From the NCBI GenBank assembly GCA_000934665.2, contig JYFJ02000689.1, positions 1-64,000 on the forward strand: a stretch of 64,000 nucleotides of DNA. Direction: 5' to 3'. Origin of the DNA: Catajapyx aquilonaris. Lineage: Eukaryota. Each line of letters begins with the position of its first letter. The first letter of the stretch is position 1. A program made the translations under genes and the position numbers. Of this stretch, positions 35,915 to 64,000 are shown piece after piece. A model generated the notes under the pieces. The model did not search any database. It worked only from the letters and a program-made list of their open reading frames with translations, and was not told the origin of the DNA.

Positions 35915-35966
<52 letters not shown>

Positions 35967-36192
35967 GGTCTTTAAAGTGTTATACCTTTGGATCGTTTGG
36001 ATCTTTGGGTCCGGATGAGTTGTTGGTGGACATGCATCGCTCCAACCTGTATCGAGCGAGGCCGTTCGTCGGATGTTCCAGAAGCACCACCCTGCTTGTT
36101 GTTGGCACCACCTTTGCTGTGGGTGCCACGGCCACTCGTGGTCGCACGGTGCCGCGTAGTACCAGGCCGGACCTCAACACTCGGCTCAGCAT
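31381..36192 (-). CDS. LONP1: Mitochondrial Lon protease homolog, 938 aa
   Basis: Arg-rich N-terminal presequence, Walker A GPPGVGKT, Walker B LIDEVD, catalytic Ser in PKDGPSAG and Lys in GGIKEK. Exons: 36192-35986, 35421-35251, 35193-35105, 35045-34876, 34768-34543, 34489-34055, 33997-33858, 32868-31814, 31761-31597, 31539-31381 (2817 nt). Confidence 0.96.
33100..33780. repeat. Compound minisatellite (55-bp then 37-bp units) in Lon intron 7
   Basis: About 6 copies of gtagataaccattgaaataaaatagct..., then about 4 copies of ctagtattacacaagtaactattaaactgaatagataa. Confidence 0.9.
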
Positions 36193-41211: not shown

Positions 41212-41673
41212 ATGGCGCCTCGGTACGACATGTGCATTGGCCTGAAGAAGGGGTACAAGACCACCAAGAACCCGCAGAAGCCTCGGCCATCCAACTCCAA
41301 GGGGGTGAGAAACCATAGTTGTTGGCAGCATGTTCACGAAGGTTAACGCCACATGTTTGCTTTACAGCGACTGACGAAGCGGGTCAAGTTTGTGCGAGAC
41401 CTGGTCCGCGAGATTGTAGGTCACGCCGCGTATGAGAAGAGAGCCATCGAGTTGCTCAGGGTCTCACGAGACAAGAAGGCCATGAAGTTCCTCAAGAAGA
41501 GGGTAAGTCGTTGTGCCCGCACACAGAACAGTGCCGTTGCAATAACTGAAATTTTGCGGTGCGCTTACTGCTATTGTACTTTACAGCTCGGTACTCACAT
41601 CCGTGCGAAGAGGAAGCGAGAGGAGCTGAACACCATCCTGTTCCAGATGAGGAAGGCGCAGACGCAGAAGTAA
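41212..41673 (+). CDS. RpL36: 60S ribosomal protein L36 (eL36), 104 aa
   Basis: [19 protein letters not shown]...[54 protein letters not shown]. Exons: 41212-41304, 41368-41502, 41587-41673. Confidence 0.97.
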
Positions 41674-42574: not shown

Positions 42575-45500
42575 TCATTTATTCCTGGTGAGTGTCCGTT
42601 GCTTCTCGGCAAACTCGACGATCTTATCCTGTACATGCAGACCTTTCCGTCTTCTGACGGCATCCATGTATTTCTTAGCCCGGTTTTCAGAGTCCGCCTT
42701 CTCTCCGTACAGCAAGTACTCCTCCTCCGTTCGTGGAACCCAAAACGGGTCTATGTCCAGTACCTGCGAACCAGAAAAAAATATATATTAACTCGGGGTG
42801 ATTTATGGACATGATCTTTTTCCTGGAATTGGTCGATGGTTTTTTTTTTCAGCTGTTGCTTTTTTTTCTAAGAAGTTGGTTGGAGCGTGGAGATGAGTCA
42901 CTTTGAATTGGGCACCTTTTCGTCCAGTTTTTTTTTTCTTCTCATTATACGCCTGACATAGTTGAGGGCTCGTTACCGCAATACTTGACTCACCCACACA
43001 CATGCAATGTTGGTAATTGTCATTTACTTTCAACTGTCAAAAGCATCCGACGTTAATCCTGCGAACATTCACATTTTAATTCTACACCGCCAAAAATTAA
43101 TTACTAACTAAGCGCAGGCAAGATGCTAATAAAAACAATGTTTTAATAAAGTAATTTTAAACTAATAAATATTTTAAGAAAGGGCTTAGAGGTTACCAAT
43201 TTCTAATATCGTGAGTTTTTAATCATTATTCTTAGTACGTTAGCCGGTAATTTCATACCACCAAAAATTAATAAATAAATAATTAATAGCAAGCAAGGTC
43301 CCAGCTGAAAATAATTGTTTTAATGAAGTAATTTTAAAATAATCAATATTTATAGCAATGCGCTTAAAAGTTACCAGGCTAAATTTTGTATAATTATTTT
43401 AGTACATTAGCAGCTAATTTTATGTATAAAATTAATAGTTAATAATATTGGCAAGATGGTTTTATTAAAGTAATTTTTTAAATAATGAATATTTTTTATG
43501 AAGAAGCTTCGAGGTTACCAACGTTAGCTTCTAATACCTGAATTTTAGGCATAATTTGCAGTACATTAGCAGATAATTTTTATAACACAAAAATTAATAA
43601 TAATTAATAGCAAAAGTTACTGGCTGAAAATAACATTGCAATAAAATATTTTTTTTAGCTTGGAAGACTGCTCATAATCATCTGAATTTTTTGTCATTAT
43701 TTGAGCACATTAGCAGCTAAATTTTCTATGACACCAAAAAAAAAATTACAATAAAAATTAATTGCAAGCAAGATGCCAACTGAAAATTATGTTTTGATAA
43801 AATTATTTTATATCAAATTATTTTTTAGCTTAACAGACAAATTAGCTGCTCATAATCGGCTGAATTTTTTATCGTTATTTGAGCACATTAGCAGCTAATT
43901 TTTATAACACCCCCCCAAAAAAAAATTAATTCAATGCAACCAAGATGCCAACTTGAAGTTTCCAACAACCCTGAATTTCTTGGGACCAATTTTTTTCCAC
44001 CCCCCCTTCCTATTGACACCTTTTGCAATTATTATTACACCACAGCAGCATGTTAACCTCGCTCCATTTGCATTTTTTTATAAACAAATTTTAAACCATG
44101 AATCCAGCAAATTAAAACAGTTAGATGACCTTTTCCATCTTAACACCCTCTGGGGGGCTTCTCCATTCATTTATATAAATATTTTTTTTATATACATTTT
44201 TTCTTTCTTTCTTTCTTCTTCTTCTCTAAAAATTTTCACGCATCATTCTGTTCAAGACAAACACGTGTGCATGGTAGGAATTTTTAGTTTCGTGCAGAAG
44301 CCGTCCCGCAATTACCTTTTTTTTTTTGTATTTTCTTTTTCTTCAGGCTGTAAACCGGCCTCCATCTCCAAAAAATCTCTAACCGCTGTCCCGAACTGCT
44401 AAGTCCAGTAGCCGTAACATTAATCAAGGAGGGAAGAAGACTCGTGAGGGAAAGGTAACTGCCTCAAGGTCCCCACCATTAAAACGCCACAAAAACAAGG
44501 TTTTCAAAAAAAGAGAGAGAAGAGAGAGAGAAAATTCCTTCTCAAAAAAAGGCTATTGGAAACGAAAAAAAAAGGAGGCACGAAAAATTAACAGGCCTAT
44601 AAAACTACTGAATGTCCTTTAGCCCTCTGAAGGAATTTTTGGTGAGCTCCTCAGTAGGATATATGGGAGCGGCTGTGATGCTGTCAGATTTTGGGCGTTG
44701 GTTCCCTCCTCCTCCTCCCCCCCACCCATCTTTGCCACCCCTCAAGCTACCTGATGAGGGACCTTCTTTGTTTGGTAAGGCCGGAAGTTGGATTTGTTTG
44801 AAGTTTCAGTTTGGGAAAAACCCACCTTAAAGAAAAGCCAGTGCTGACAACGAAAGTGTCACTCTTCTTAGCATACAGATGAGCCTAATAATATTATAGG
44901 CTCATCTATTGCTAAGAAGTGACTAAAATTTTTCAGTCATCTACATTAGTTCTTGCTCCAAAAATAAAAATGGGAGAGAAATCATGAAAATTCCGTACAG
45001 TTTGCCCTGGACGTACGTTAGCCTCGACTTACGTACAGCCTGACTTACGTAGAATTGTCCGTCAATCGGCAAGTGTTGCGGTTTGAGAACAATGGCTCCG
45101 ACTTACGTACAGCCTGACTTACGTAGAATTGTCCGTCAATCTGAAAGTGTTGCGGTTTGAGAACAATGGTCTCCGAGTTACGCACAGCCTGACTTACGTA
45201 GAATTGTCCGTCAATCGGAAAGTGTTGCGGTTTGGGAACAATAGCTCCGACTTACGTACAGCCTGACTTACGTAGAATTGTCCGTCAATCGGAAAAAGTG
45301 TTGCGGTTTGGGAACAATAGCTCCGACTTACGTACAGCCTGACTTACGTAGAATTGTCCGTCAATCGGAAAGTGTTGCGGTTTGGGAACAATGGTCTCCG
45401 AGTTACGTAAGACTCGACTTACGTATACGTAAGTCGGGACTGTCTTGAAATTTTTCATTAAATTTTTCAGCGTATATTGTTGCGACTTGCCTCCCAGTGG

Positions 45501-45675
45501 CTGAATAGCAGCTGTGGCGATGCAAGTCCCGACGTTTGTCGTCTTATCTCGTTGGCAAAGTTGAAGCTCTCGACGACTGGTAGGACGGCCGTGACGCTAA
45601 ACGACGAAGAGCCTTCCTCCATGTCGCCGTGCAGGACTCGGCCATGGCGACGACCAAGGACGGCGTACATCTTAC
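42575..45675 (-). CDS. EFL1: Elongation factor-like GTPase 1 (EFL1/Ria1), last two coding exons only
   Basis: Exon 45675-45491 encodes [15 protein letters not shown]...[31 protein letters not shown]. Exon 42763-42575 encodes [42 protein letters not shown]...[11 protein letters not shown]. This C-terminus is diagnostic of EFL1. The intron between them is GC-AG. Confidence 0.93.
45010..45445. repeat. ~75-bp tandem repeat x5 ending in a palindrome, possibly the interior of a MITE
   Basis: Unit gacttacgtacagcctgacttacgtagaattgtccgtcaatcggaaagtgttgcggtttgggaacaat. Terminal palindrome cgacttacgtatacgtaagtcg. Confidence 0.85.
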
Positions 45676-46319
45676 CTGCCAAGGGAGGGAAGAAAAAAAA
45701 AGACACCCAGTTCACCTCTAAGAAGAAGGGTAGGGCGCAAACACTAATCCTTAGACAGCTTCCATTCACACCTTTGACAAAGGAGCATGCCAAGCACGCT
45801 TCGGGTCATAAAGTCAAGAAGGTAGGGTGTGCAAGGAAGCCCTCCCCCCCCCAAAAAAGATTGGCATCAGCCAAAGCTTCTCCCCCATCCAAGAGATGGA
45901 TGAGGCCACTGAAAACCCAGCGGGGTCGCGACTACCAGGGTTACCCGTAGGTCAATCCGTCTTTTCCAACTGTCATGCCCCCCACGGGCCACGCGACCCA
46001 ACCCTTAGTATTTCTCTTCTTCTTTTTTTACACATATATATAGTAGTTGTTGTTAAACCAAAGAAGTTGGTTAGGTTGTTTGTCGCTCTGGGTTGCGTCA
46101 CGGCCTCGGTGTCAGTTGGCGAGATCTGAAAGTGTCCGGCCTTGGATTTTATAAGAGAAGGTGCCCACCCTTACACACTTTTACCTGTTGCAAGCTGCTA
46201 CCTAAAAAATTTCAGGCGCTCTTAAGGAATTACCTATCATTTGTACAGTACCTACTCAAGAGACTTAAATTATTCTAGAATGTACCAACATGGCAACATT
46301 GATCGTTAAATACAGGTTA

Positions 46320-47040
46320 AATGCTCTAACACACGACAAACGGTAGTTAAACGCTCGAACGTACGATCAATGTCAGTTAAATACTTGAACGTACTAACTA
46401 TTGTCATAAATACTTGTAGGTATAGAAACAAGCGTGAAAATTACTCGTATATGTATACATGCAATATTATGATGAACACTCGCACGTACGACCAATGGCT
46501 GGTAAATACTCGAACGTATACGAATAATTGAGAGAAAAACTCGTAGCCTACTTATATGAACAATTATGATAAATACGCGCACGTACGAACAATTGATAGA
46601 AATACTCGTACGAACAGTGTACGATCAATTGAGAGAAATACCCGCACGAACAGTATACGAACAATTGAGAGAAATACTCGTACGAACAGTATACGAACAA
46701 TTGAGAGAAATACTCGTACGTACGACTAAAGACAGGTAAATACTCGTACGTATACGAGTATTCATTGAATACTCGTATACGTATACGAACAACTGTGATG
46801 GATACTCGTACGTATACGAACAATTAATTGTAATAAATAATCGTACGTCCGTCAATTGTTGTTAAATATTCGAACGTATGAACAAAATAATTGAGAGAAA
46901 TACGCGTACGAACGATTATGATAAATACTCGTACGTATATTATATGCGAACGATTATGAGAAATACTCGTGCGTATGACCAATGGCAGTTAAATACTCGA
47001 AAGTACGAACAAGCACAAATCATGGCCGTTAACGTATGTA
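46320..47040. repeat. Degenerate tandem repeat (aaatactcgtacgtatacgaacaatt)
   Basis: Roughly 20 diverged units of about 33-36 bp. Confidence 0.8.
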
Positions 47041-48099
47041 TACAAAAATGGTATGTATACAAAAATACTAAATAATCCGATATTGCTCTGTTTTTTTTAC
47101 ATTCCTCCCCATTTACAAAACCGGTTGGAAGAAAGGCGGTTAAAAATGGCAGAGTCCTTCGGCTAAATCTGTCTCTTGGGTTTGACCAGTGTCCAGCCAC
47201 GCCCTTATGGCTCTGGCTGTTGGGTATACACCTTTTTCTTGTTTACGCTACTCGACCTTACGTCCTTACCACAGCACATTGGCTTTCGATTCACGGATCA
47301 TGCCGAGCCCACATTTTGTGATCAGGAAGCTCAAGGTGGAATATATTGGCTTCCAAATGTTTGTGTGGGGCGTTTGTGTCTTTCAAAGCTTTAAAAGTAT
47401 GACATCCTGTGCGAGATTCATCACGGAAGAGGCGTTTTTAGGACCCACAGATTTTTGTCACCTGTAACACCTGCCACTGAGTCACTTCTCCCCGGTGTAC
47501 GAGGAGGACTCCCCCCAAAATTCTCGGTTGGCACGACAGCAATTCAAAAATCCGGTTTTTCCAGCCCAGGCCAAGAGGAAACCGAAACAGTAGCCGGCTT
47601 CCAATGTACAAATTGCTACTTAGAAAAGTGGAATGGAAGAAGAAGAAGAAAAAAAAGGAACTGGTTCCAACCATAGGACCGCTTCGAACCAATTAGGCTT
47701 CGTAATTTTTTTATATATATAATATATTATATTAAAAGTTGACGCCACGCAACCTGACCTTTCCTGGAAGTAAAAATTTTTATGAAAAGCGACGTCATGC
47801 ATGGTATTGCGTGCAGATTTTTGATGTCATCACTCACCCACCACCTGTATAATCCCCTTAAGGGGGGAGGGGGGGAGGGGCAAAAATCTGGATTCCGGTT
47901 TTTCAAATGGGGCGTGGGGTGTAATCACGACATTATCACCTGGCCGGAAGGAGCCTTCAACATGATTTCTTCGGGGCCACTCATGTTACGTACGCAAAGT
48001 GCGTAATGAGTCTAATGACTCACCCCAAACCATGCAAAGTAATGAGGTAAATGGACGAAAATAACGATTAGGTAGCTTGGGGATGTATACAGTATAATA

Positions 48100-48960
48100 T
48101 AAGAGTGTGTTTGTTTGTCTCAATGAAATTTGTATATGAAATGTGTATATCTTATAGGCCTACCGGTACGTATAGTATAAAAGGCAAAAGTATGTTGGCT
48201 TGTTTGTTAATTGGTCCATTTTCATGCCAATTTCATACCCATTATTACGCATACAAGGCATTGTCCCATTGAAATTTGCATGAATCTATGTATATGTAAA
48301 AGGCAAAGTTTGGTTGTTTGTCTTATTGAAATTGGTATGAATCTATGTAACTATATGTATGTAAAAAAGCAGTTTGTGTGTCCCATTGAAATGGGTATGA
48401 AATGTGTATATCCTCACATATAAAGGGAAAGTTTGTTGGTTTGTGAATTTGTCCCATTTTCATATATGTCAATTTCATACCCATTATCAAGCATGGAAGG
48501 CAAACTCTGTTTGTCTGCCCCACTGAAATTGGTATGAAATGTCTATAAATCAATGGTCTGCACCCTATACATAAAAAAGGAAAGGTTTGTTTGTTTGTTT
48601 GTTTGTTTGTTTGTTTGTTTGTCCCATTTCATGCCCATTTTAATGCATAGAAGGCAGAGTTTGTTTGTTTGTCCCATTGAAATGGGTATGAAATTGTCAT
48701 GAAATGGGACAAACATATAGCCTTTTATACAGCACACATATAGATTAGATCTATATGTGTATAAAAGTCAAATTTGTCTGTTTTGTCCCATTTCATATCA
48801 ATTTAATACCCAGATTGAAGGCAGTTTGTTCGTTTGTCCCAATTGCAATGGATATGAAATTGGCATGAAATTGCCCTTTCATACACATACATGAAAATGT
48901 GTGTATAAAAGGCAAAAAGGTCTGTTTGTTCTGTCCCATTTTCATACCAATTTCATACCC
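48100..48960. repeat. Helitron-like repeat array (aaggcaaagtttgtttgtttgtcccat...) upstream of argos
   Basis: Recurrent gtttgtcccat / gaaattggtatgaa modules and a (TTTG)n tract. Confidence 0.65.
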
Positions 48961-49120
48961 ATCCCACACCAGATTGGAGACAACAAGATGACCACTTTGT
49001 CCAGTGTAGGTGGACACAAATACTCCAAGTGGGCGAGGGATACCAAACGGTTTTTCCCTCTCTTCTTCTCTCTCTCTCTCTCTCTCTCCACCCCCTTGAT
49101 CCTGCGCAGCTCCTCCCCAG

Positions 49121-49195
49121 ACATGAATGGACGCTTCCAGTCATTCATGAGAAAGAGCTATAAAACCTTGTAGTAAGTGCGAAGGTGCGCAGTTG
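49121..49195 (+). promoter_or_regulatory. argos core promoter: TATA, Inr-like element and Capicua site
   Basis: TATAAAA at 49159-49165, GCAGTT with the A at 49191 (32 nt downstream), TGAATGGA at 49124-49131. Confidence 0.6.
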
Positions 49196-49574
49196 GAGGG
49201 TTGGAGATGGTGGGGGTGGGACAGGTGGCAAAGCCCACGTGGTAAAAGTTGGAGGGCTTCTGGACAATCATTTTCTCTTCGCTTACTCAACGCGCCTCAG
49301 GTGTTGTGTAGTGGAGGGACCTGTGGTGGTAAGGGGTGGTTCCCAAAAAAAAAAACGAAAAAAAAAGAAAAACTCAAAACACAAAAAAAAAACACTCAAA
49401 AGTGGTAGGTGGTGTGGGGGTTGGACAAAAACACGAGAGAAGGTGAACCGGGATTTTTGTTCTTCATGCATCACCGGCGAGCTGGGATGCTGTTGGCTGT
49501 TGCTCCGGCTTGTTGCTAGTGCTTGTTTGTGGTTTTTGGTGGGGGAAGGGAGGGGGGGGGAGTGTCCCACAACA

Positions 49575-52500
49575 ATGAGCTGGACTGAGGTGACGTTGTT
49601 GGCCGTGGTGTGGCTCATATGGGCCACCCAGGCACGACCTGCGGCCAGGATGACCCTGCCCTTCGTGGTCCAGCAGTCGCACTACCATCATCCGAGGGTC
49701 TCACACGTCTTCTACCAGGTCGGGGTAAGTTGAGACGCAGTGCCATGGCACCTGCACGTGGACCTTTAGGCAGTGAGAAAAACCTGTTGACTTCCGGTCA
49801 AAACGTTTGCGACAATGCCCTCGAATAACTGCGCCCGAATAACTTCAATATTATTGTAGAGGTACCATGGCCGGTCATGTTGTCAAGATCCTGTGCCGGT
49901 ACACGTGACGAAATACTTATCGCGGACGTTGTAGGAAAGTCACATTGTCGCGGGACACACAATGACGTTACTTCAACTACGTCATAGTCAGGCACTTTCA
50001 TACACAGTGTGTGGCACCTTTATGGCGTCATTGTCAGCATGTGACGTGACGGTGGGACATTTGATGTCACAACCATGGTGGCACCTTGTACGACGTTATT
50101 AATGTGTCATATTTGATGTCACAAAAAGTATAGCACCTTGTATACGTCATTGATGTGACGTGACAGGGGTACCGCCAATACGCCACAAACAAGATGGTAT
50201 CTTGTATGACGTCATTGTCAGTACGTGACGTGACAGTGGTACCTCTGATGACGTCACAAACAAGCTGGCACAGTCCATGACGTTATTGTCAGCATGTGAC
50301 TTGACATCTTTGATGATCCCACAAACATGGTGGCACCTTGCGTGATGTCATTAATGTGACGTGACCATGGTGCCACCGTCGTCTTTCCCGTCATATGCAG
50401 GAACTTTCATACACGATGGCGTGTGTCGTGGCACCTTGTACGACGTCATTAATGTGACAGTGGCACCCAACATGATGGCCATTTGCGGATCTCTCCTGTC
50501 ATATGCAGATTCATTCATACACGATGACATGTGGCACCTTAGATGACATCACAAACGCGGCACTTGTACGACGTCATTAATGTGACGTGGTGGTGGCACA
50601 TTTACAATATGGTACCTTCGCGTCATTGGCAGTACGTGACGTGACAGGTACCACTGATGACGTCATAAATGGCGTCACTGTCAGACTGTGGCACCTTTTA
50701 TGACGTCACAAACATGGTGGCACCTTGTATGACGTCACAAACATGGTGGCACCTTGTATGACGGCATTAATGCGACGTGACCCACCATTAGGGGGTGCCA
50801 CCGTCACCTTTCCTGTTCAACGCTGATTTCACAAGCATATTGTGGCACCTTTTGACTTCTTTAGTGATGCGACGGTGGTACCCAACATGTGAGGGTGTCA
50901 CCGTCGTCTTTCTTTCGACTTGTCATGTTCCCCCTCCAAGTGGACCGAGCCAAGTCAGATGGAACCAAAACCGGGTCCATCTGAAGACCGCAAGTCCCCC
51001 CCCCTCGCTCGACACGTGACAAGAAGAGATTCCTCCCCGATTGTTGTAGTCACGGTGCACTGGTCCTGGGGTTTTGCACACGTGGTCTCCCAAGGATAAA
51101 AACGCGTATTTAATGCCTGGACGTGCTCCATGGGCGGCCTAATGACTCACATCGGGTGCGCTGCCTTAGGTCAGGGTTTTTGGACACCCTGTCCGAAACA
51201 TTTTTAAAAAAACTATTTAAATTTTTTTGGGGGGGAAAAAAGAAAATACGGGGGGTGGCCTCGAGGGCCCATCTTTGGAAACAGGAAATCTGATTGATCA
51301 TAATAATAATGGTGATCAAAGCAAGTTGGCCTCCAGTAAGCCCTATGCTTGGTTGGTACCCCCAGGCCGGGAAGTCATACCACTCTTGGAAGTAGTTGCC
51401 CCCGGAGGACTTTTCCTTTCCTGTTTCATTCAAGACGGTTGAAGTGGTGGTGGTAGGGGGATGGGGGTGGAGGTGGAGGAGGCCGGCTTACCAGTTCATT
51501 CATTGCTCTCTCTCCGATCATTCATGACTGGAGCTCGTTAGTTCACAGGACACGCCGGCTCTCCAAAAAGAAGGTCAACTGCCTCTCTCTTCAAGGGGGT
51601 GGGTTTTGCTTTCTCTACCCCTCCATCCGTTTCGATCCAGGCTTGGAAATGCAACCAATAATTGGCCTGGCCTACTCGTCCGACCAGGTCCAGGAATGCC
51701 ATTTTTTTTTTTGCCACCAACTATTTTTTTTGTTTTTTTTGCAATGTCCACCAGTTGGCACGTCTGGATCACCCTGTAGTTTTGTGCAATGTGCACTCGC
51801 TTCTGGAACAGCATGCAGTTTTTTGTCATATAGTGCACACTTCTGTAGCACCCTGTACTTTTTGTCCAAAGTGTACGAACTTCTAGAACATCATGTACTT
51901 ATTTGTCTACAGTGCACTGCACACTGTCTGGAACACCCCGTATTTTTTCGTCCAAGAGTGTAAATTAAGTGTTGAACTGGTGGCGCCTCGAGCCGATAGC
52001 AGCAAAAGAGAGCACCGAAGCGACGTATTAGTTTCTATTAGATGAATGTTTTTTTTAACGAGCGCAACCGAGTGCGCACCCTCACTCTCGCAGCTCGTCT
52101 GTTGTGAAAACAGCGCTAATTTAATATATTATTGTTGCAATTTATTTAATATTTAGAGTTTATTATTTGTATATTCGTGTTTATTATTTTTACTGTGATT
52201 TATTATTTTTACTACTATTATTTATTTTGACACATGATTATTTATTATTTATTCATTAATGATGTTTATTTTTACCGCTATTATTAATTATTACTCATGA
52301 TTACTTATTATTCATTATTACTCACGATTACTTATTATTACTTATTAATTATTATTAGTTACTAGTTATTACTTATAAGGCTACTTATTAATTATTATTA
52401 GTTACTAGTTATTACTGATAAGGCTACTTATTAATTATTATTAGTTACTAGTTATTACTAACTTATAAGGCTACTTATTCATTTATTGTTTCATTGAATT

Positions 52501-54847
52501 ATAATTCACACCCGTAGCCTCTGAAGGTTCATTCCAGAACCTTGTTAACGTCGCAAACGTCAGCCATTTTGTTTCCCCACGAGCGTAGCGTTGGAAATAC
52601 TGTACTTGCAGAGCTTATATGCACCAGTATACCCACTACACATGGAGCTTACCAGAGATGTATCAATTGATAATGCCAACCGTGCTGGCTGCGTGAACTG
52701 TGGTGCGGATTCGGTTGTGCGCACATTTAAAAAAAAAAATCATATTATATAAAAAAAATTTAATTATTCGTCACTTAGATTCGCTCTTTTCCCGGCAGCA
52801 CCACCAGTACGACACCATTAATGCCGTTCAGCACTGTTACACACTTCCCAGGCTTGTTAATACAGTATTTTTAAAAATATTTTAATTATGGGCGGTGGCC
52901 TCGCTCTGATTCCCACGTGTGTTGTGTGTTGCAGAATTCGGAGGAAGACCTGCCCACATGCTCGCCCTGGAGCGTGTGCAATAAGGTGGACACCTACGAG
53001 AGGCCGTGGATAGAGAGGCAGTGCAGGTGTCCAGGCGAGAAGGAGTGCTCGTCCGACCTGGACGCGTCAGATGGACACACCATCACGGACAGGACGAGGC
53101 ATTTCAAAGTAAGGTTATATTCTCTGGCCATCGGTTTGTCCGAAACATTTTGTGTATAAATGACCCCTACTGACAGATGTGCGAGCCGGTAAAGCGTCTC
53201 CCCAAATGCCGGTTCTTCCACGACGTGACCTGGACGTTGGTCAGCTCACCGAGCAACGTGACCCAGCAGGTCATGCACTGCCATTGCCCCAAGAACTCGG
53301 TGGCCTACCTGCTCAAGAGGTTGGCCTACCAGACGGAGGAGGGGCCAGGCTACCAGTACTCATTCGCCTGTTCACCTCAAAGCGTAAGATTCGCCAAAAT
53401 AATATTCTTTTTTGCAAAAATTATGATAAATAAAAATAATTGCATACTCCGGATAAATGCATTTCGGATAATTGCATACTGCGGATATTTGCATAATATA
53501 GTGATTATAATCGAATCTGCCAAATATTCACCATTTTTGCAAATAAAAAAATATTGCATACTCCGGATAAATGCATTACTGATATTTGCATAACATTGCC
53601 GAATCGTTTGCAAAAATAAAAATAATTGCACACTCCGGATAATCGCATTACGGATAATTGCATGCTCCGGATATTTGCATGATATACGGTAGTGATTATA
53701 GTCGAATCTCCCGAATGTTAACAAAATATTTTTTGCAAAAATAATAAATAAAAATAATTACATATTCAGGATAAATGCATTTCGAATATTTGCATCATAT
53801 TGCCGAATCGTTTGAAAAAATAGAAATAAATAAAACTAGTTGCATACTCTGGATAAATGCATTACGCATAATTGCATACTCCGCGTATTCGCATAATATT
53901 GCCGAATCTGCCGAATAATCACAAAATATCTTTGCCATAATAAAATAATAAATCAATATAATTGCATACTCCAGATAAATGCATTACGGATACTTTCATT
54001 CTCCGGATATTTGCATAATATTGCCGAATAGGTCGAATAATCACACAAAAAATTGCAAATAAATTTCGCAGTTCAAAACATTCATCACTGCACTATGGTC
54101 AGATATCTCCAACTCTTGAGGGTGGACAGGACGTGCTTATCATTCAGGAAGGTGTAGTTAAAAATGCAATTGCGCACATTGCATTTAAGGCAGGACCACA
54201 ACCGGGGGTGGGTATAATGGCGTAAAGGTAATTTAAGAATCATCAATCCGAGTTGAGGCAGCTCTCGAATGGTAAAAGTTGATTGCTTGCCATGGTTGCA
54301 AATTGACATGTTACAAGTGCAGGATATACGTAAGTGGGCGTGAAGCAGACAAAATATAACATAATTATGCCACATACTCTCTTAATCGCATTAGAAATTA
54401 CCACACACTCTAGGTCTAGGAGCATTACGAATAATTTAATTACGAATAACTGCAGACGTCGGATAATGTCATACTTCGGATAATCGCATATTCCGAATAA
54501 ATGCATACTCCGGATAATTTCATACTTCGGATATTTGCATAATCGGTCAAATCCGCCGGATAATCGCAGAATTCTACGAACGGTTATGCAATTAACCGGT
54601 GTGTACTATAGTGAGTCAGACTAATGTTTTCATTTCTTTCCGGCAGAGATTGAGGTGCCAGCGGAAGGAGCCATGTCGGCTGTTCACGGTCAGGAAGCGA
54701 CCAGAGGTGAACGAAGTCAACACAAACACCCTGTGCCAGTGTCCACATAACTTCCATTGTCCGAGGCACCATACCGACGCAGGGGTCATACCTGGGAAGA
54801 CCTTCACTCAAGACTCGGTCCGCACCTACAGCGGTTATTGCATCTGA
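49575..54847 (+). CDS. aos: Argos / giant-lens, secreted EGFR-ligand antagonist, 243 aa
   Basis: Signal peptide, FYQVGNSEEDLPTC..VCNKVDTYERPWIERQCRCP, DGHTITDRTRHFKMCEPV, CHCPKNSVAYL, RLRCQRKEPCRLFTVRKR...YSGYC. Exons: 49575-49724, 52935-53108, 53177-53383, 54647-54847, all phase 0. Confidence 0.95.
50010..50880. repeat. Degenerate repeat rich in TGACGTCA/GTGGCACC in argos intron 1
   Basis: Repeated modules such as atgacgtcacaaacatggtggcaccttgt. Confidence 0.8.
51140..51530. promoter_or_regulatory. Candidate EGFR/MAPK-responsive enhancer in argos intron 1
   Basis: TTCATTCA (Cic octamer TGAATGAA) at 51425-51432 and 51495-51502, near-match at 51517-51524, AP-1 TGACTCA at 51143-51149, several GGAA cores. 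Confidence 0.55.
53400..54590. repeat. Degenerate repeat (ttgcatactccggataaatgcatt...) in argos intron 3
   Basis: Multiple units of about 100 bp at 53400-54060 and 54440-54590. Confidence 0.8.
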
Positions 54848-55429
54848 TTTAGTTGCAATAGTTGTTTTTTTTTTGTCATAAAGAGTTTGCTCATCAAGTC
54901 ATAACATACGAGGGGGTCATACGAGTGTGCCAATCAAAGTGTTGCTTAAAAAAAAGTGTGCAAGACCTTCCCGCACCCCCTAAAAATTTAGTGGGATTAT
55001 TCCCATAACCACAGATAAGCTTTCCCATAGTGCGGACATTTAATTATTTTTTATTGGGAATATATGAGTGGATGACCTACGTCACTCGTTGCGTACCTGA
55101 AGTAATTGACTATACTCAGAGACAGTGAGGACAGTCAACAAAACACTGGCTCAATAGGTGGAAATAAAATGCCATGGCACTCTCAGGTTATGGGTCCTTC
55201 AAAGTTAATCATGTGCAGGAGGACATGCCTTGGTTTCGATTTAACTTAAATGATAACAGAAGATTAGCCTTTTGTTTCCTCAGCAAGGCTCGTTACATCT
55301 ATTTAGACGTGACATGTTACGTCTGAATAGACGTAACATTTTACAAACATGCCACGTCTAAATAGACGTCTAAATCGTCGAGATTAAGTTTGATATAATT
55401 TTTTTAGATGCTGTTTTTTCGACCTTCTA

Positions 55430-56050
55430 CTAACGTTAGTGGCAGCTACTAAAGATAGCAAACGTTACTCCTGGCTTCAAATAGAATATTTAGTACCTTC
55501 AATAAATGCGTTTCTTCGTTTTGATAAAGTTAGTGGCAGTTACTAACTTTAATACAGCAACTTTCTTTAGCTGTTGATGGTGTCTGCTGATGTAAGCAAT
55601 TATGTGTTACTAGCAGCTGCTCAAGTTAGTGACAGTTACTAACTTTAATGAAGGAACGTCACGTCCTTTAGCTAAAGTTAGTGGCCTGTGCCTGTTAGTA
55701 GCAGCTGATAAAGTTAGTGGCCGTTACTAACTTTAATACGGCAACTTTCTCTAGCTGTTGGTGTTGTCTGCTCATGTCAGCAATTATGTGTTGCTAGCAG
55801 CTGCTGCTAAAGTTAGTGACAGTTACTAACGTCAATAGAGCAACTTCCTTTAGCACATCTTTCTGCTAACTGTGGCGTCGTCTTTTACGAATTACGTGTT
55901 AGTAGCAGCTGCTAAAGTTAGTGACAGTTATACTAACGTCAATAGAGCAACTTCCTTTAGCACATCTTTCTGCTAAATGTGGCGGCGTCTTTAAGCAATT
56001 ACGTGTTAGTAGCATCTACTAAAGTTAACAGTTAATGGCAGCCACTAGTG
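55430..56050. repeat. Degenerate repeat (aagttagtggcagttactaac)
   Basis: Repeated units of about 100 bp whose core resembles the family A MITE interior. Confidence 0.7.
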
Positions 56051-56850
56051 TAGTGATAAGTACTAGACATAATCACCTGTTAATAGCTACCTCTGACTTT
56101 AATAGAAGGTCGAAAAACGCTCGTTTCCCATAGATCTTACGTTCTTTTTTAAAAAATAAATAAAAATAAATCTTTAACATACATTACTTCTAGTTTACTG
56201 CATGTTATCGCCATGAATATAAAGCTCAAATTGTCCCGAAAAGCTATGTTTCCCGTTATAAACCGTTATATAACTTTTATAGCAGTTGCAAATCTCACTA
56301 CCAGCAATTATTTACAATCAATGTTCGTGTCATTTTTAAAAATGTACAAATCGGTCAAGTGAGTCCTAAGTGTTTTAAAAAATAGTTTTTTTTGTGTGTT
56401 TCTTTTTTCCTAGCCAGTTATTTTTTACTGATGGCCCTCCCATTAAAGCAGATACGTCACTACCGGTTTTGTGTTCAGTTATTTCATTTGCAGGCAGATG
56501 GCGTGTGAATCAGCTCGAATAATGTTCGAGCCTGCAAAGGTGTCGCCATCTGGTCGGTTCAACCAACTACATGCACCTTTATGTACCCCTCAATTACCCC
56601 CCCGAAGATAGTCGCAAAAAAGGACCCTCATACTTTCATAGTGCACCGTACAGTTTTGTGCAAATCCGGAAGTGGCAATTTGCACACACGAAATTTCGAC
56701 TATAAAATGGCAATAAATCAGCTTTATCTGAGTGCTTCTCGGTTGCACAACTTTCAAACTACCGTAGTTGAAGGGGCGGAAAAAAATATAAAGATTGATA
56801 TCTGCAGGGTCGTCTCGCTTCAATGATTGGCGTAAACAGCTTCCTCAATA

Positions 56851-57000
56851 CAGGGTGGTCCATTGCTACAGTTCAAAAGCCTCTGATCACATTTTTTCCC
56901 CTCAACTATAGTATATTTTTGACTGCTCTTTATAGTACAAGGAGCCCTTGCAATGGACAAAAATGGGTTTAAATTTTTTGATGGCGTGTGGACCACCCTG
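56851..57000. mobile_element. Tc1/mariner-type MITE sharing the CAGGGTGGTCC TIR with the 19283 element
   Basis: Ends read TA|CAGGGTGGTCC...GGACCACCCTG|TG, with a different interior. Confidence 0.6.
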
Positions 57001-57571
57001 TGTAACGTAATAACGGACATTGCCTCGCATGATTTCCGGATGTATCGGACACCGTAAATAGCGACAATTGTACGTCTCCAGGTTGCCCGTCACGACTCCG
57101 TGAGTTTCTCAAGTCATGAAAAATAATAATAAAAAAAAGAGAGAGAGAGAAGTTATAATACGCGTTGCCCGAGACATAACTGGGTATATCATTTTTCTTC
57201 GGTCTAAATACTGGGGCCAAGAGAGGCACGCCCCAGACGAGTCTGGAATTTCGTATGTGCACCATACGTTGTACAAACTTACATAACAATGCTTGCGTAA
57301 CCTAAATAGATAACAGCCCCCCCAAATTATGACAAACCGAAATCTATATACACATGTTGCTCAACTATATCACCTGAAGACACTGGACACATTACCCTCT
57401 CAATAATCACACGTAAATTCCCCGACTTTCGTCACCCCAGTGACAAACACCTGATAAGTGCAAATTGCCCGTGAGTTCAAGGCAGTTGTCTAATTACTGC
57501 ACCTGAGTAGTTATGTATAAAAACGGGGGCATATGTTGGATGACCAGCACATCTCAACAACACAAGCCATC

Positions 57572-58185
57572 ATGAAGGTCCTGCTCCTGGTAAGTTCACT
57601 GTGATTATTTCAATACTTAAATGTCTATTTAGACGTGACATATTTGGAAAATGTTAAAGTCAGTTATTTCCATCAGTTGTCAAATTATTCTGTTAGGACA
57701 CATTGTTACATCCTCGGGTGTGATGTGGTATGTTCCTCCTTAGGTTGTGGTCGTTTTGGTTACGGTGTATGGACAGCCCCTAGTGGGAACGGAGACTAAG
57801 GAGCACCACCAAACAACGGAGGTGGTGATGGATGTCGAGAAGCATCACCACGCAGAGTCTCCTGCCGTCAAGCTGACAGGGCACGTCGTCGAGGGTGACA
57901 AGCACATCGTAGAAGGTGACAAGCACGTCGAGGATCTAAAGACCGAACCTTTCCTGTTCTACGGAGGTTTCGGTGGATACGGAGGATACGGAGGATATGG
58001 CGGATACGGAGGATACGGCGGATATGGCGGATACGGCGGATACGGGTATGGCGGCTATCCATACTACGGCTACGGCTACGGCTACGGGTAAGATACGACT
58101 ACGGCTATGGGTAAGGGTACTTGCATTTTTTGGGAATAAATTTTAATAACAATTGTTTCATTGCAGGTACCCTTATTGGGGCTGA
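57572..58185 (+). CDS. Small secreted His-rich, Gly/Tyr-rich (GGY)n protein, 126 aa (cuticular or neuropeptide-like class)
   Basis: TATAAAA at 57516. Exons: 57572-57589 (MKVLLL), 57744-58087, 58167-58185 (ending YPYWG*). Signal peptide present. AATAAA at ~58218. Confidence 0.85.
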
Positions 58186-58686
58186 TTTATTCTGGCAGTT
58201 TGTAACCCTAAATATGCAATAAAACGCAGTATAGCTCTTGTACTATGAGAACATTTTTCTTCCTCCATATCCAACCCCCACCTTCTCTATAATAGGAACA
58301 AACCGCACCTAAATGGCCGCCTGCTGCGATTGCGAAAACCTCGGTATAAAAGTTGGCCATTCTTCCTCTTTGGGCAACCCTCTTGTAGCTACGTACAAAA
58401 CAAGACCCCAAGATTTCGACCCCGGAGTCGTGATCGTCGTTCCGGGAGAGAGCGACATTTTCCACCAACACTGAAACCAATGCGATTTCCGCACAGACAT
58501 GCGAGACTATCAAGAGATGACTACACACTTTTCAATCACCCGTTATGTCCTCCATGTTTTTTTTTGTAAAGCGAAACAGCCTCAATTGAATCTGCATGTG
58601 CAAAACAAGGGGCGAAAGTCTGTGCCTCTGTTTACAGTGAGTCATCACTAGTCATCTATGTGAGACACATGACACTTGTATACGGA

Positions 58687-58931
58687 CAGGGGTTGCCATT
58701 TCCCAATTATTCTCATTATAATTGCAATTTTCTCATTGCACTATAACCTCCTGAGACCCCTGGTACAGTATACTGTACCTTTGTTTTTTCCAGCACCTTC
58801 TGACTAACTCAAACGCGTAAAAAAAGAGGTACAGTATACTGTACCAGGGGTCTCAGGAGGATAATAGACACAATTGCTATTTTAACATTTATAGTGAGTA
58901 AATGAGAATAATGAGGGAAATGGCCACCCTA
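58687..58931. mobile_element. hAT-like MITE (GGGTTGCCATTTCCC TIR) containing a nested piggyBac-like MITE at 58747-58860
   Basis: Outer imperfect TIRs ggttgccatttccc.attattctcatt / aatgagaataat..gggaaatggccaccct. Inner element CCTCCTGAGACCCC...GGGGTCTCAGGAGG has ATAA on both sides. Confidence 0.7.
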
Positions 58932-59509
58932 TAGGTGACATATGTCCCACACACGTGTGTTCACGAGCCAAAATAATTAACCCACAAAATTATGACACAC
59001 TGATACAATAACGGCGCGCCTTAACTTTTTTTGTTTTTTAAACGGATGGTTTTAATCCACATGGTTGATCAATCGTGATTTTCACCGTTTAGATGGACTG
59101 CCTCACGTAATATTCACAGTCTTATTTGGATGCGTCACGCATTCCGGGCTCGATGGAGCCGAAATTAGTGGGCCAAACTATTGCTCAGCGGAAAAACAAC
59201 AAGTGGCGATCAGTAGACAGCTAGAGAGAGAGAGAAAAAAAAATTATATATAAAGGTTCATATCTCCTGACATCCCGTTATGGGCAACGTAGCGGGCTAA
59301 CAAGGGGGCAGTTATATCAAACAGAGTGCCAACAAAACGGAGACAAACGGTAAAAGAAAAACTAAGGCCACTCGTCAATAACAATTTCTGGGGGAAAAAT
59401 ATAATGATATTGTCTCCAGGACTAAATATAAAAACAGCAATGTTCATCATCACTTCGGACGCTCAAGTCACCTCAGTTCTCATGTTTTCATTTATTATAA
59501 TTTTTATTT

Positions 59510-59810
59510 TATTTACCATAGTTTAAGAAATAATTTACCATAGTTTAATAAATAATTTATCATAGTTTCATTAATAAATAATTTATCATAGTTTCATTAA
59601 TAATTTCATTTATCATAGTTTAATTATTTACTTTATTTATCATAGTTTAAATTATTTACATTATTTATCATAGTTTAAATTATTTACATTATTTATCATA
59701 GTTTAAATTATTTACATTATTTATCATAGTTTAAATTATTTACATTATTTATCATAGTTTAAATTATTTACATTATTTATCAGAGTTTAAATTATTTACA
59801 TTATTTATCA
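59510..59810. repeat. 28-bp AT-rich tandem repeat (atttatcatagtttaaattatttacatt)
   Basis: About 10 copies. Confidence 0.9.
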
Positions 59811-62800
59811 TATTTTGGCCAGGTGGATTGCACTTGTACCTGGTCATCGCTGGTAATCATGAGAAAATACCGTGATTGAAAGTAACTATTTTAATTCTTC
59901 GTTAATTATTTTATTTCATTTATCACATTTTTACTATTACTATATTTTATTCATTTATTCATTAGTTCAATTACTTATTATTTATTTCAATTATCATTAC
60001 ATTTTCATTATTTATTATTGCATTTTCATTATTTATTATTACATTTTAATTGTTTATTATTGCATTTTAATTGTTTATTATTACATTTTAATTATTCATT
60101 ATTTTCATCTATTATTTATTTCGTTATTGTTTAATTTGCCAGTTTGGAAAATTACGAATCGTTCAAATCGAGCACAATTCGGCTCCAAATCGATTATTAT
60201 AAATAACGGCAAAATAAATGTCACCCAAGAATATCGTCACCCACAAATATCGATGTATCGACACATTGCTAAAAAGGAAGTGACATTATTTTTGGTGGTT
60301 TTTTGCTAACTAAAGGCGCTCTTTTCATCCTTTCGCGTGTGCTCAGATCTCTTCCGTTTTATAGGAAGGGGGAAAAAAAGTGTCGCCATGTTATTGGCCA
60401 CACCGCGACAATACACGGGTTTCCTACAAAAATGTCCAGGCCTCAGCCAAGTGTAACAAGTGCAAAAAAAAAATTGAATTACACCCACCAAAAAATCATT
60501 AATGAAGGCACGAGCTTTTTCAGCTACAGGATCGCGGCGGGGGACTCTTCAAAAGGAGGTTCGCAAGAGCGTGGAAATAAGTATAAAATATAATATATAA
60601 AAAATCGTGGAACAAATCCGGAACCTTTTTCGTCATACCACGAACTTCCTCTCCGGTCAGTCCCTCTCTTCATATACCCAAAAGGTGACGGATGAGTGGG
60701 CACAGCAGCATGCCTTTGGAGGAACATATTTTGGAAGTACGATATATATGGTGCGCTCCTTGGTGTTGACTCCAACCCGGAAGGAATAACTTTGAAGCAA
60801 CATTGGTCCTATAATAACGGTGTTGTCGTTTGCCTTGTGAAGGACGGTTTAATTCCAGGTGTCTGTATACGGGTTGTTATGCGCACATGTTAGAATGTGG
60901 CACAAGCTCATTGGCATGCTTGTACGGCATGGGTGCCAACATTATTTCATGTCGGATTACCGGGTCATACTGCATGGATTCGGACTGCTAAGTACGGTGG
61001 AAAAAAAAAAATTGTAGCGTCTAATCTCAACCCAGATCATTTGCTCATGGAAGCATTAATTCCATGGAAGTCAGACGGATTTATTTAAAACCAATTCCAG
61101 CAACAATTAAGCGGCAACATCAATGCATTTTCTTCTATACTTACTGAATAGTTTGCAAAAATATACTCAATTCACACATTTAAAAGTATGTGTAATACAT
61201 TAATAATATAAAATAGTATTAATTTATTTTTTAAAAAAAATTACAATAATTTCAGTCAATAAATATTTTCATACTATAATCACTTTGGAATATAAACCAA
61301 TAATTTTACAAAATAAATTGCATAAATTCCATTCTAGAAATTCATAATTTCATTACATAAATGAATTTCATTCAATAAATTAATTTCATTCTAAAAATTT
61401 AAGCTTTCATTCTAGAAATTAATTTTACAATAAAAAGTCTTATTAATTTAATAATGACACAATATCATTTAATATAACTTCAAAAATTAACATAGTTTAC
61501 AAATAATATTGATATACGAGAAAATCGTACAATATACTGTATAATGATTTATAATATAATTTGATAATACAATAACAGTTTACAATACAACAATATTTTA
61601 TAATATTATCTTATAATCCAATAATTTCAGAATGTAATAGACTAATTTTATAATATAGTAGGTTAATATATTCCTATTAATATAATAATTCGCCACGAGT
61701 GTTAATCGAGACCCATCAGGTAAGACAGGTCGGCTTCAGACGCAAATTAAAATACAAATTATTATATTAATATTAATATAATAATTTGACACGCGTGTGG
61801 TTACATAAGCGAGACCCAGTTAAGACAGGCCAGCTTCAGGCGCAAACTAACCGTACACACACACATCACTCCAATTCGCACATGGCGGCCTTCACACAGA
61901 CACACACTGTCCATCAGCATCCTTCTGCCTGGGATTAAGAGCGACCTCTTGCGAAAGTGCATCGGTCCTCATTTCCACGTGACACTGTCACTATATAGTA
62001 TACACAGTGTATGTGGTGCGTGAAGGAAGACAGATCATCTTCTGAGGGAGAGATCCAAAGAAGGTCGTCCCCACCATGTGATGTCGCTCTTATAAAATGA
62101 CGACACAACGAAACTATAACTGTGAATTCGTCACCCTGCTGCCGGCCCGCTCTAATTTAACGTCTCTCCTGTATAATTAAAGGTAATGACCCCCACAAAG
62201 AGTGTAATAAATAACCAGAATAAAGAAGGTGCATAAAATACGACGCAATTACGGCTGACACCCAGAGTAATTACAATGGGGGTAATTGTTGCGTTTAAAA
62301 ATTATTTCTCGACAGTGACGCACGAAAAAAATGACGAAACGCGAGCTGACTTCTACATATTAATAATAAATCGCAAAAAAAATGTGTCTCACTATATTTA
62401 TATCATCTGGAAATGTAACAATGCGCTTTTTTTTGCACTAAATTTGTGCCATCCTGTTAATGACTAATTGTAAAAAGTTCATTTCGTCGCACTATTTCTA
62501 TCAAGAACGGTTCCTTATCTGTAAATGCAACAATTGCGTATTTTTTGCACATTTTGGCCAACTTCATCTACATATTAATGATAAAAAGTAAAAATGTTTA
62601 TTTAGACCGATTATTTCTCTCAAAAATGCTCCTTGTCTGTAAATGCAACAATTGCGCATTTTCGCCAATTTTGGCCGGGATACCGGAATATTTGAGCAAC
62701 GTTCAGGTTGCTGACCTGCCAACCACAACGTACCTCACCTGTGGTACCTGTTATAACAAGAGATTCACTTCAAGCATAACTGCAATTTTTTTTATTTAAA

Positions 62801-63248
62801 AGCAACACCTTCAAAACGAATCTCAAAATGCCGGAACTGCATATTATTAAATTCCATCCAGTTTCCCCACAGTCAATTAATCAGCGGTTAACAAAAACTC
62901 TTCGTTATAATGTTCGCCCCCCTGCAAAACCAACGCTTTGTGACAAGAGGGTCATATTAGTCTTCAACACATCATCACTCCTCCGTAAACTTCTTAGGGT
63001 GTCGCCAGGGTCCCCCCCCAACAATGGTTGGGTTCATCATCAGAAGCTCAGGATTGGCCACAGCTCGGATGATACCAAGATCCTGGTTGGTCGAAAAGAG
63101 GCAAGTCCAGCAGTGGTGGCAGATGGTGCGGATGACTCCTGCTGCACTCCTTCCGTGCTGGTAACGGTGCAAAGCCCGCCCTTTTCTGGACAAAGCTACC
63201 AGTGCGCCGGAAGCGTTGGCCGCTGGCGGACCACTGTTGCCTTAAACC

Positions 63249-63626
63249 ATGAGCCATCAACTTGTGATAGTGCTGGTGCTGGTGGTGCTGGGTACTGTGG
63301 ACGCAGGTTCCAGACGACAATCCAAACCGATCAAGATGAACGCGACTGAAACTGTGACGCCAAAGAAGACCACTGTTGGGACATCGCAGAGGACAACTGT
63401 TGGGATATCCACGAAGACAACGACATTGAACACCGCATTAAAATCAACTATTATAATCGCAAGGACAACCCCATTCACAACCACAACCACAACAACAGTG
63501 CCTCCAACCACCACCGACATCACTACCCAAACACCATCGTTGGAGAGCCGTACAGGCGAAGAACAAGACGAGTACCTACTGTATCCAAAGGCCGACAGCA
63601 GCCAGGAGCACACACCTCATCTGAAG
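63249..63626 (+). CDS. First coding exon of a secreted or membrane protein with a Thr-rich mucin-like stalk
   Basis: aaaccATG context, signal peptide MSHQLVIVLVLVVLGTVDA, Thr-rich tract, NAT sequon, probable donor AAG|gtaaca at 63627. If unspliced, the ORF stops at 63638. Confidence 0.65.
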
Positions 63627-64000
63627 GTAACACCATGATGTTGACACTTTCCTCCACTAGTGCGACAATCATTTTGCGTCTTATAGTACTAATAATTGTC
63701 GTCAAATATTTATCAACTATGTCATATCCACAGTGATACACATCCTTTATCGTGATTGCTTCACGCCCTGACTCCCACAGTGACCATGCCAGCATGACAT
63801 TTCGCCGTTACGTATACCTCCCAAAAAAAAACGAGGTCCTCCCCTTTGCATAATTTTTATGTTAATATAGTCAGCATTCATGCGAGACACATAAGGACAG
63901 TCCAACATACCATCTATAAAAAGGAGGTTAGCAAAAAAGAAACGCTATGAAAACACCGCAATCCGTACAACTGTAGCATCAAGAGTCACGTCTTAAGAAT

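Follow-up and report, generated by a model that had tools for sequence, protein, structure and literature searches.

Why does argos, which encodes a secreted trap for EGF ligands, lie inside an intron of EFL1, which encodes an essential GTPase of 60S maturation, and what has kept the two genes together? We addressed this question in Catajapyx aquilonaris, in a window of 64,000 nt corresponding to positions 1-64,000 of the 115,646-nt contig JYFJ02000689.1 (window and contig share their numbering), and we also analyzed the region to the right of the window. Our analysis identified three plus-strand genes, argos, a Gly/Tyr-rich peptide gene, and an ortholog of dsx-c73A, whose coding spans all fall inside 45,676-73,932, antisense to EFL1. 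According to the gene models, whole guests sit between the consecutive host exons 11 and 12, that is, in a nested (intronic) gene arrangement. The explanation we favor, with a probability of roughly 60%, is an ancient nested locus kept intact chiefly by its topology.

EFL1 intron 11 and the genes inside it

Along the whole contig, the curated EFL1 model comprises 13 exons and encodes 1,062 amino acids without an internal stop, with 66% whole-length identity to the EFL1 of the cockroach Periplaneta. In tblastn searches of the contig with four EFL1 proteins, residues 1 to ~957 (query numbering) matched at 77,306-73,922, and the last ~125 residues at 45,676-45,491 and ~42,784-42,578; no EFL1 exon was found from 45,676 to ~73,900, where all matches were at chance level (E of at least 0.9). 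This interval corresponds to intron 11 (45,676-73,932, GT-AG, phase 1), which measures 28,257 nt and ends 9.9 kb past the right edge of the window. By comparison, introns 1-10 measure 53-60 nt and intron 12 is 2,727 nt long; the only enlarged introns are 11 and 12, i.e., those at argos and upstream of argos. Joining exon 11 to exon 12 keeps the frame and gives a full-length protein, and we infer a splice across the 28 kb.

These results bear out the original prediction, made from the window, that the exon at 45,675-45,491 (minus strand) begins mid-protein at an acceptor and that no further EFL1 exon follows up to 64,000. This exon 12 (Pfam EFG_C, E = 1e-10) starts at a CAG acceptor, in phase 1, inside the Gly of 'ML-G-KMY'. 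It matched 102 of 149 candidates in a homologue search, the named full-length matches being EFL1, and is single-copy in the assembly, where two further matches are just 35-38% identical. The proposed search to the right of the window placed EFL1 residues 1-938 at 77,306-73,933, so exons 1-11 lie on the same contig and neither between 45,676 and 49,500 nor on another scaffold. An orphan EFL1 fragment was rejected as an explanation, given exons 1-11 on the same contig, a single-copy exon 12, and a full frame. As loose context, an EFL1 tree built with a draft model that retained a 57-nt intron placed the window EFL1 with insects, outside the sampled winged-insect groups, at an open fork. Two side observations concern the same gene: its last intron has a non-canonical GC donor (45,490-45,485, minus strand), and a second weak match to residues 24-44 at contig positions 92,259-92,197 (E 0.003-0.05) looks like a degenerate copy of the 5' end of EFL1.

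The three guests, which had been predicted from the window as plus-strand genes, proved real: all have GT-AG introns and open frames, and together they cover 57% of intron 11. The argos model has the three-domain pattern, with 16 Cys and two Pfam Argos matches (E = 1e-32 and 2e-20; 113 and 74 bits against a cut-off of 25), and argos is the sole locus reported by a Pfam Argos scan of the whole assembly, which did not report dsx-c73A. The dsx-c73A ortholog has six exons encoding 313 amino acids, of which exons 2-6 encode two Argos-type domains with 10 Cys; its stop lies 371 nt from the EFL1 donor. Between these two genes, which stand head-to-tail, the peptide gene encodes an acidic/His-rich, pro-like region followed by GGY repeats and a WG end which could be amidated. 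Gly or Tyr account for 44 of its last 52 residues, and it presumably resembles Gly/Tyr-rich cuticle or antimicrobial peptides. This gene is single-copy in the assembly and has no Pfam match and no clear homolog, a dedicated homolog search not having been made; its Atlas matches at 0.85 and 0.81 are leads only.

Descent of dsx-c73A from an argos-type gene

The original prediction had recognized the third guest as a gene for a Thr-rich protein; the gene stands as a plus-strand guest, but its identity had been missed, as it is dsx-c73A, an apparent argos paralog that continues to 73,561. A search with its exon 4 matched 283 of 287 candidates, and many of the 120 listed carry the name doublesex cognate 73A. 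Identity to dsx-c73A proteins is 69-80% over exon 4 and 51-66% over the domain region. We rejected a mucin or toxin-like gene on the basis of this homologue search. The fly protein is described as secreted and apical-matrix/cuticle-like (PMC4197698), and a table row of another study lists its gene with shavenbaby-type cuticle genes (PMC5569996).

Several comparisons connect this family to Argos. Profile-profile alignment of 20 dsx-c73A with 18 argos proteins gave a probability of 97.5% (E = 4.9e-12), and a search of PDB sequences with the dsx-c73A profile returned Argos (3c9a) as its sole match at E<=1 (E = 0.013). The Argos family PF11581 matched 18 of the 20 dsx-c73A members at E<=1 (best 0.002; one, shown in full, lies below the cut-off). 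In Foldseek, all four matches of an ortholog AlphaFold model at E<=0.001 were Argos chains, and a VIA structure search ranked Argos first (Z 7.2, under the tool's own mark of 8; rmsd 3.8; 107 aligned residues within chain residues 108-348), the next match having a Z of 3.4. The structural match covers Argos domains 1-2. The alignment to argos contains no counterparts of the domain 3 cysteines (10 versus 16 Cys), and the C-terminus is a short predicted helix. The positions of argos and dsx-c73A introns, of which the nearest pair by eye is six codons apart, were not used as evidence.

In a 31-row tree whose bootstrap is not fully settled, the argos and dsx-c73A families separate at 100/100, each with chelicerate members; because both families include chelicerates, the duplication would be older than the chelicerate-insect split. 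Taken together, alignments and structure models indicate that dsx-c73A is a shortened Argos paralog, with domains 1-2 of the predicted two-finger (Argos) fold behind a Thr-rich stalk, which would make the EFL1 intron the seat of an old tandem pair. Spitz binding requires Argos domains 2 and 3 and relies on domain 3 (PMC12514838). The two-domain fold of the dsx-c73A family has already been published, without that gene name, as the two-domain cluster D of protostome 2FTX Argos-fold proteins (Khilji 2025, PMC12514838); the cluster representative, Battus philenor XP_068622463.1, carries dsx-c73A family motifs. The main text and four supplements of that study do not name dsx-c73A, and we found no mention there of genomic linkage to argos or EFL1. 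A three-domain argos is also found in the tardigrade Hypsibius (OQV14694.1).

Linkage of EFL1, argos and dsx-c73A in other arthropods

Beyond this contig, the evidence for linkage consists of accession order and scaffold lengths and not of sequence. EFL1 and argos were compared in nine taxa, with crustaceans and myriapods outside this comparison. In the mayfly Ephemera, an EFL1 C-terminal piece, argos, and dsx-c73A are consecutive (B566_EDAN009918, 009919, and 009920) on one 552,549-nt scaffold, in the order seen on the Catajapyx contig. Three ticks also have the two genes as near neighbors by number: Dermacentor silvarum (HPB49_001255, an EFL1 C-terminal piece, and 001256, argos; RefSeq XP_037563173-175 and 178), Rhipicephalus sanguineus (EFL1 XP_049269412-418 and argos 420, neighboring accessions), and R. 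appendiculatus (MTO96_022248, which matches EFL1 amino acids 1-938 and then diverges, and 022251, argos). In Tachypleus and in a second Dermacentor record (524.9 Mb for both genes), the data say no more than that EFL1 and argos lie on a chromosome of the same length. The two genes lie on different sequences, both short contigs, in Trichonephila clavipes.

In Drosophila, the original prediction had placed argos, as a point to verify, within CG33158, the EFL1 ortholog. Coordinates in published tables imply that argos is on the opposite strand and starts ~64 kb downstream of the CG33158 start; these tables do not give the CG33158 end (PMC522868). Likewise, dsx-c73A does not appear in the table of that study, and its fly position is not confirmed by coordinates. 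Elsewhere, SNPs separated by 20 kb carry the annotation CG33158 intron, and one paper's table gives the function of dsx-c73A as 'ribosome-associated, elongation factor GTPase', apparently through confusion with an overlapping EFL1. Compared with this 73A locus, that of Catajapyx is more compact, with its 28-kb intron, and has the added Gly/Tyr peptide gene. Our searches turned up no paper that reports the linkage of argos, dsx-c73A, and EFL1 or that it is conserved; FlyBase, subscription papers, and further supplements may record the nesting. In FlyBase, the fly nesting is very likely visible. Altogether, gene numbers in Ephemera and three ticks and the fly coordinates support the original prediction of an old host/nested arrangement.

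Further records place one gene of the pair relative to EFL1 or to the other. EFL1 and dsx-c73A are adjacent in Cimex (XP_014251313 and 315) and share a chromosome in Anabrus and Lycorma, three taxa with no argos data. The accessions of dsx-c73A and argos are consecutive in Hyposmocoma (XP_026326117 and 118), and both genes lie on one scaffold or chromosome in Neocloeon, Nasonia, and Oratosquilla; in Petrolisthes they are on different short scaffolds. In an isoform model of the bee Ptiloglossa, argos exons are joined by splicing to those of dsx-c73A, which points to a shared strand and the same order in this species. The pairs from Haemaphysalis (EFL1-argos) and Homalodisca (EFL1-dsx-c73A) were dropped, as the paired records apparently come from different assemblies. 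A metagenome scan with argos exon 3 yielded 10 loci (1.2-10.9 kb) from 145 matched stretches; none carried an EFL1 exon, and six weak dsx matches fell on the argos match itself, results that are uninformative for synteny.

The position of intron 11 is widely shared among EFL1 genes. Among partial EFL1 matches (<500 amino acids), 23 of 36 start at residues 936-942, a count that, with exon 12 as query, shows intron position and not intron size. Independent assemblies break their EFL1 models at this same residue. Chimeras are frequent among public models in the region: the Ptiloglossa argos+dsx-c73A model, argos+arrestin-domain in Uloborus, EFL1 exon 12+neprilysin in Haemaphysalis, and, in Ephemera, EFL1 exons 12-13 with ~130 extra residues between them.

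Table 1. Features of the Catajapyx EFL1 locus (window numbering, which continues into the contig beyond 64,000).
Feature	Position	Strand	Remarks
EFL1 exon 13 (last)	42,575-42,763	-	amino acids 1001-1062 plus stop; tblastn and gene model
EFL1 intron 12	42,764-45,490	-	2,727 nt, GC-AG, enlarged
Octamer in EFL1 intron 12	44,162		one TGAATGGA
Tandem repeat in EFL1 intron 12	45,025-45,425		74 bp
EFL1 exon 12	45,491-45,675	-	185 nt, amino acids 939-1000, EFG_C domain
EFL1 intron 11, part within the window	45,676-64,000	-	runs on to 73,932; 28,257 nt in total
argos upstream region and first intron	45,676-52,934	.	candidate regulatory region with Capicua-like octamer cluster; putative function
Capicua-like octamers	45,761; 46,761; 48,120; 49,124; 50,510; 51,425; 51,495; 52,490
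argos	49,575-54,847	+	243 amino acids, 16 Cys, hydrophobic N-terminus; TATA-like box at 49,159
argos exons (4)	49,575-49,724; 52,935-53,108; 53,177-53,383; 54,647-54,847	+
Gly/Tyr-rich secreted-type peptide gene	57,572-58,185	+	126 amino acids, ends in -WG
Gly/Tyr peptide exons	57,572-57,589; 57,744-58,087; 58,167-58,185	+	TATA at 57,516, AATAAA at 58,218
dsx-c73A ortholog, exon 1 ('Thr-rich protein')	63,249-63,626	+	hydrophobic N-terminus, Thr-rich stalk
dsx-c73A ortholog, exons 2-6 (beyond window)	68,606-68,704; 70,906-71,046; 73,126-73,276; 73,331-73,444; 73,501-73,561	+
EFL1 exons 1-11 (beyond window)	77,306-73,933	-	amino acids 1-938, introns 53-60 nt

Intron 11 also contains repeats: 5.5 kb of it has matches elsewhere on the contig, members of a dispersed repeat family are present (55,292-56,160), and tandem arrays occur at 53,400-54,050 and 59,555-59,816, in addition to the intron 12 array at 45,025-45,425. 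An Rfam search of 74 kb gave no matches. Among the neighboring genes, RpL36 (41,347-41,673, plus strand; Pfam Ribosomal_L36e, E = 2e-27) lies tail-to-tail with EFL1, ~0.9 kb from its stop at 42,575, so that a 60S protein gene stands beside a 60S-maturation factor. The minus strand further carries a myosin IX-like gene (~2,000-29,213), whose RA and motor domains are accompanied by apparent C1/RhoGAP exons read from the ORFs, and a mitochondrial-type Lon protease with Lon domains (31,778-36,000). Just upstream of EFL1 and on the same strand, at contig positions ~77,700-81,800, is a P-loop NTPase gene (adenylate-kinase-like by eye), and close to the end of the contig (~108,700-115,646) the ORFs read as LINE-like and gypsy-like retroelements.

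Persistence of the nest: topology or shared regulation

Under the explanation we favor, an argos-type gene would have come to sit in EFL1 intron 11 and would have been tandem-duplicated before chelicerates and insects separated. The argos copy would have kept the clamp of domains 2 and 3 that traps EGF ligands, together with Capicua feedback via sites in and near its own first intron. The dsx-c73A copy, without domain 3, would be an apical matrix or cuticle protein, probably without Spitz-type binding, and the Gly/Tyr peptide gene may be a later, lineage-specific passenger. The block would persist because an inversion or translocation breakpoint anywhere in the interval would cut the essential gene EFL1; to escape, a large gene would have to be copied elsewhere by duplicative transposition along with its enhancers, an event that can happen but seldom does. 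Nesting within an essential gene suffices to account for persistence, and it is the simplest explanation.

A number of observations weigh against this explanation. Strand and true nesting in other species are inferred from accession order and scaffold lengths, and no tick position for dsx-c73A was obtained, so that for chelicerates the nesting of the pair is argued from argos. EFL1 and the single argos copy seen in Argiope are on different chromosomes, and EFL1 and dsx-c73A are on sequences of different length in Periplaneta (218.9 versus 181.7 Mb), the stick insect Bacillus (73.0 versus 380.3 Mb), Sipha, and Cinara; the link is therefore not universal, and the cockroach and stick insect indicate that escape happens. 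On the structural side, the mayfly and crab ortholog AlphaFold models are weak (mean pLDDT 54 and 60), and a VIA Z under 8 may reflect just a common arrangement. A lock by enhancers would be in keeping with EFL1 intron 12, which at 2.7 kb is enlarged as well and contains one Capicua-like site. Finally, there is no background rate for the survival of nested genes over such a time.

The strongest alternative, possible though rather unlikely in our judgment, is a true genomic regulatory block, in which enhancers of argos (and dsx-c73A) would extend across intron 11, exon 12, and intron 12, and long-range regulation would keep the genes interleaved. A developmental regulator tied to a housekeeping bystander with a very long intron fits predictions 1 and 2 for ancient microsyntenic pairs, which join unrelated genes of these kinds for hundreds of millions of years (Irimia 2012, PMC3514665), and here only the introns at and upstream of argos are enlarged. 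A fly study of binding-site clusters predicts modules in the argos locus (PMC522868). In flies, Capicua represses argos via TGAATG(A/G)A sites (PMC4287436, PMC4684324, PMC3911485). On our contig, 8 of 23 relaxed Capicua-like octamers lie within the 7.3 kb upstream of argos and in its intron 1 (four in each; scan p = 0.005), as do 5 of 13 of the strict form (binomial p = 8e-4), with one more site in EFL1 intron 12. We chose the region on the fly precedent, and the scan covered seven regions with six motif patterns. Of 600 permuted control motifs, 7 reached the same enrichment, and 3 of the 8 sites have the relaxed TCAATGAA form, with repetitive or AT-rich surroundings for at least some of them. 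No specific enrichment at argos upstream or intron 1 was found for ETS, Svb, Su(H), and Grh motifs; the high ETS counts over much of the contig are due in part to repeats.

The cluster is no more than suggestive and would fit an EGFR feedback on argos that has been conserved. A lock by enhancers does not follow from it, because the mapped fly enhancers argos1-3 sit within argos's own intron (PMC3911485) and would travel with the gene; the original claim that argos enhancers lock the two genes was not demonstrated. The likeness to a regulatory block that accompanied this claim holds for three of five listed features, namely a developmental gene with an unrelated bystander, bystander introns of 28,257 and 2,727 nt against 53-60 nt, and deeply conserved linkage (by accession order in Ephemera and the ticks, by coordinates in the fly; not universal for dsx-c73A, given Periplaneta and Bacillus). 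Unlike in such blocks, an intron of the bystander encloses the whole target, which encodes a secreted ligand trap and not a transcription factor, and the known enhancers of the target, those of the fly, sit in its own intron. We do not file the locus as a genomic regulatory block, and we keep the enhancer lock under consideration because intron 12, upstream of argos past an EFL1 exon, is enlarged and holds one site.

A bolder proposal, which we consider quite doubtful, is that the EFL1 intron is a pan-arthropod 'argos cluster' under shared regulation, in which Dsx-c73A would be more than a cuticle protein, namely a matrix-tethered, domain-3-less Argos partner or decoy shaping the apical range of EGF ligands, with a read-through four-domain hybrid in some lineages. 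It is improbable that functional coupling of argos and dsx-c73A, through shared enhancers or read-through, selects for adjacency, with EFL1 as the container only. The two genes are indeed consecutive or on one scaffold or chromosome in the five species named above, and the bee isoform joins argos domains 1-2 to dsx-c73A domains 1-2; this isoform, however, is a single automatic annotation, an unrelated peptide gene separates the two genes in Catajapyx, and the fly genes are described as being under different control (Capicua/Notch for argos, while dsx-c73A is listed with shavenbaby-type cuticle genes). An assembly or annotation artefact, or independent insertions in separate lineages, is highly improbable: the assembly is fragmented (20,583 contigs) and the splice is deduced from sequence, but the locus lies on one contig with single-base Ns only, joining donor to acceptor keeps the frame and yields a complete protein with 66% identity to that of the cockroach, other assemblies break EFL1 at the same residue, and the mayfly has the same gene order.

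The ancient nest we propose has a likeness in TIMP, which is nested antisense in a synapsin intron: in both cases a secreted, disulfide-rich regulator lies antisense in a fixed intron of an unrelated gene in very distant animals. The present case differs in that a single intron houses two tandem paralogs, that the host encodes a GTPase of ribosome biogenesis, and that the observed range is the arthropods. To our knowledge, deeply conserved nested pairs are few. The tick-insect split is older than 500 million years, and the nest appears to span both groups. For work on these genes, it matters that many arthropod EFL1 genes are broken at intron 11 by annotation pipelines and that at 73A, with its three overlapping genes, a variant or insertion can be credited to the wrong gene. 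The orphan fly cuticle gene dsx-c73A would gain an origin as a tandem Argos paralog, with the prediction that it forms no Spitz-type clamp without domain 3, and the lineages in which the nest is broken would offer a natural test of topology versus enhancer sharing.

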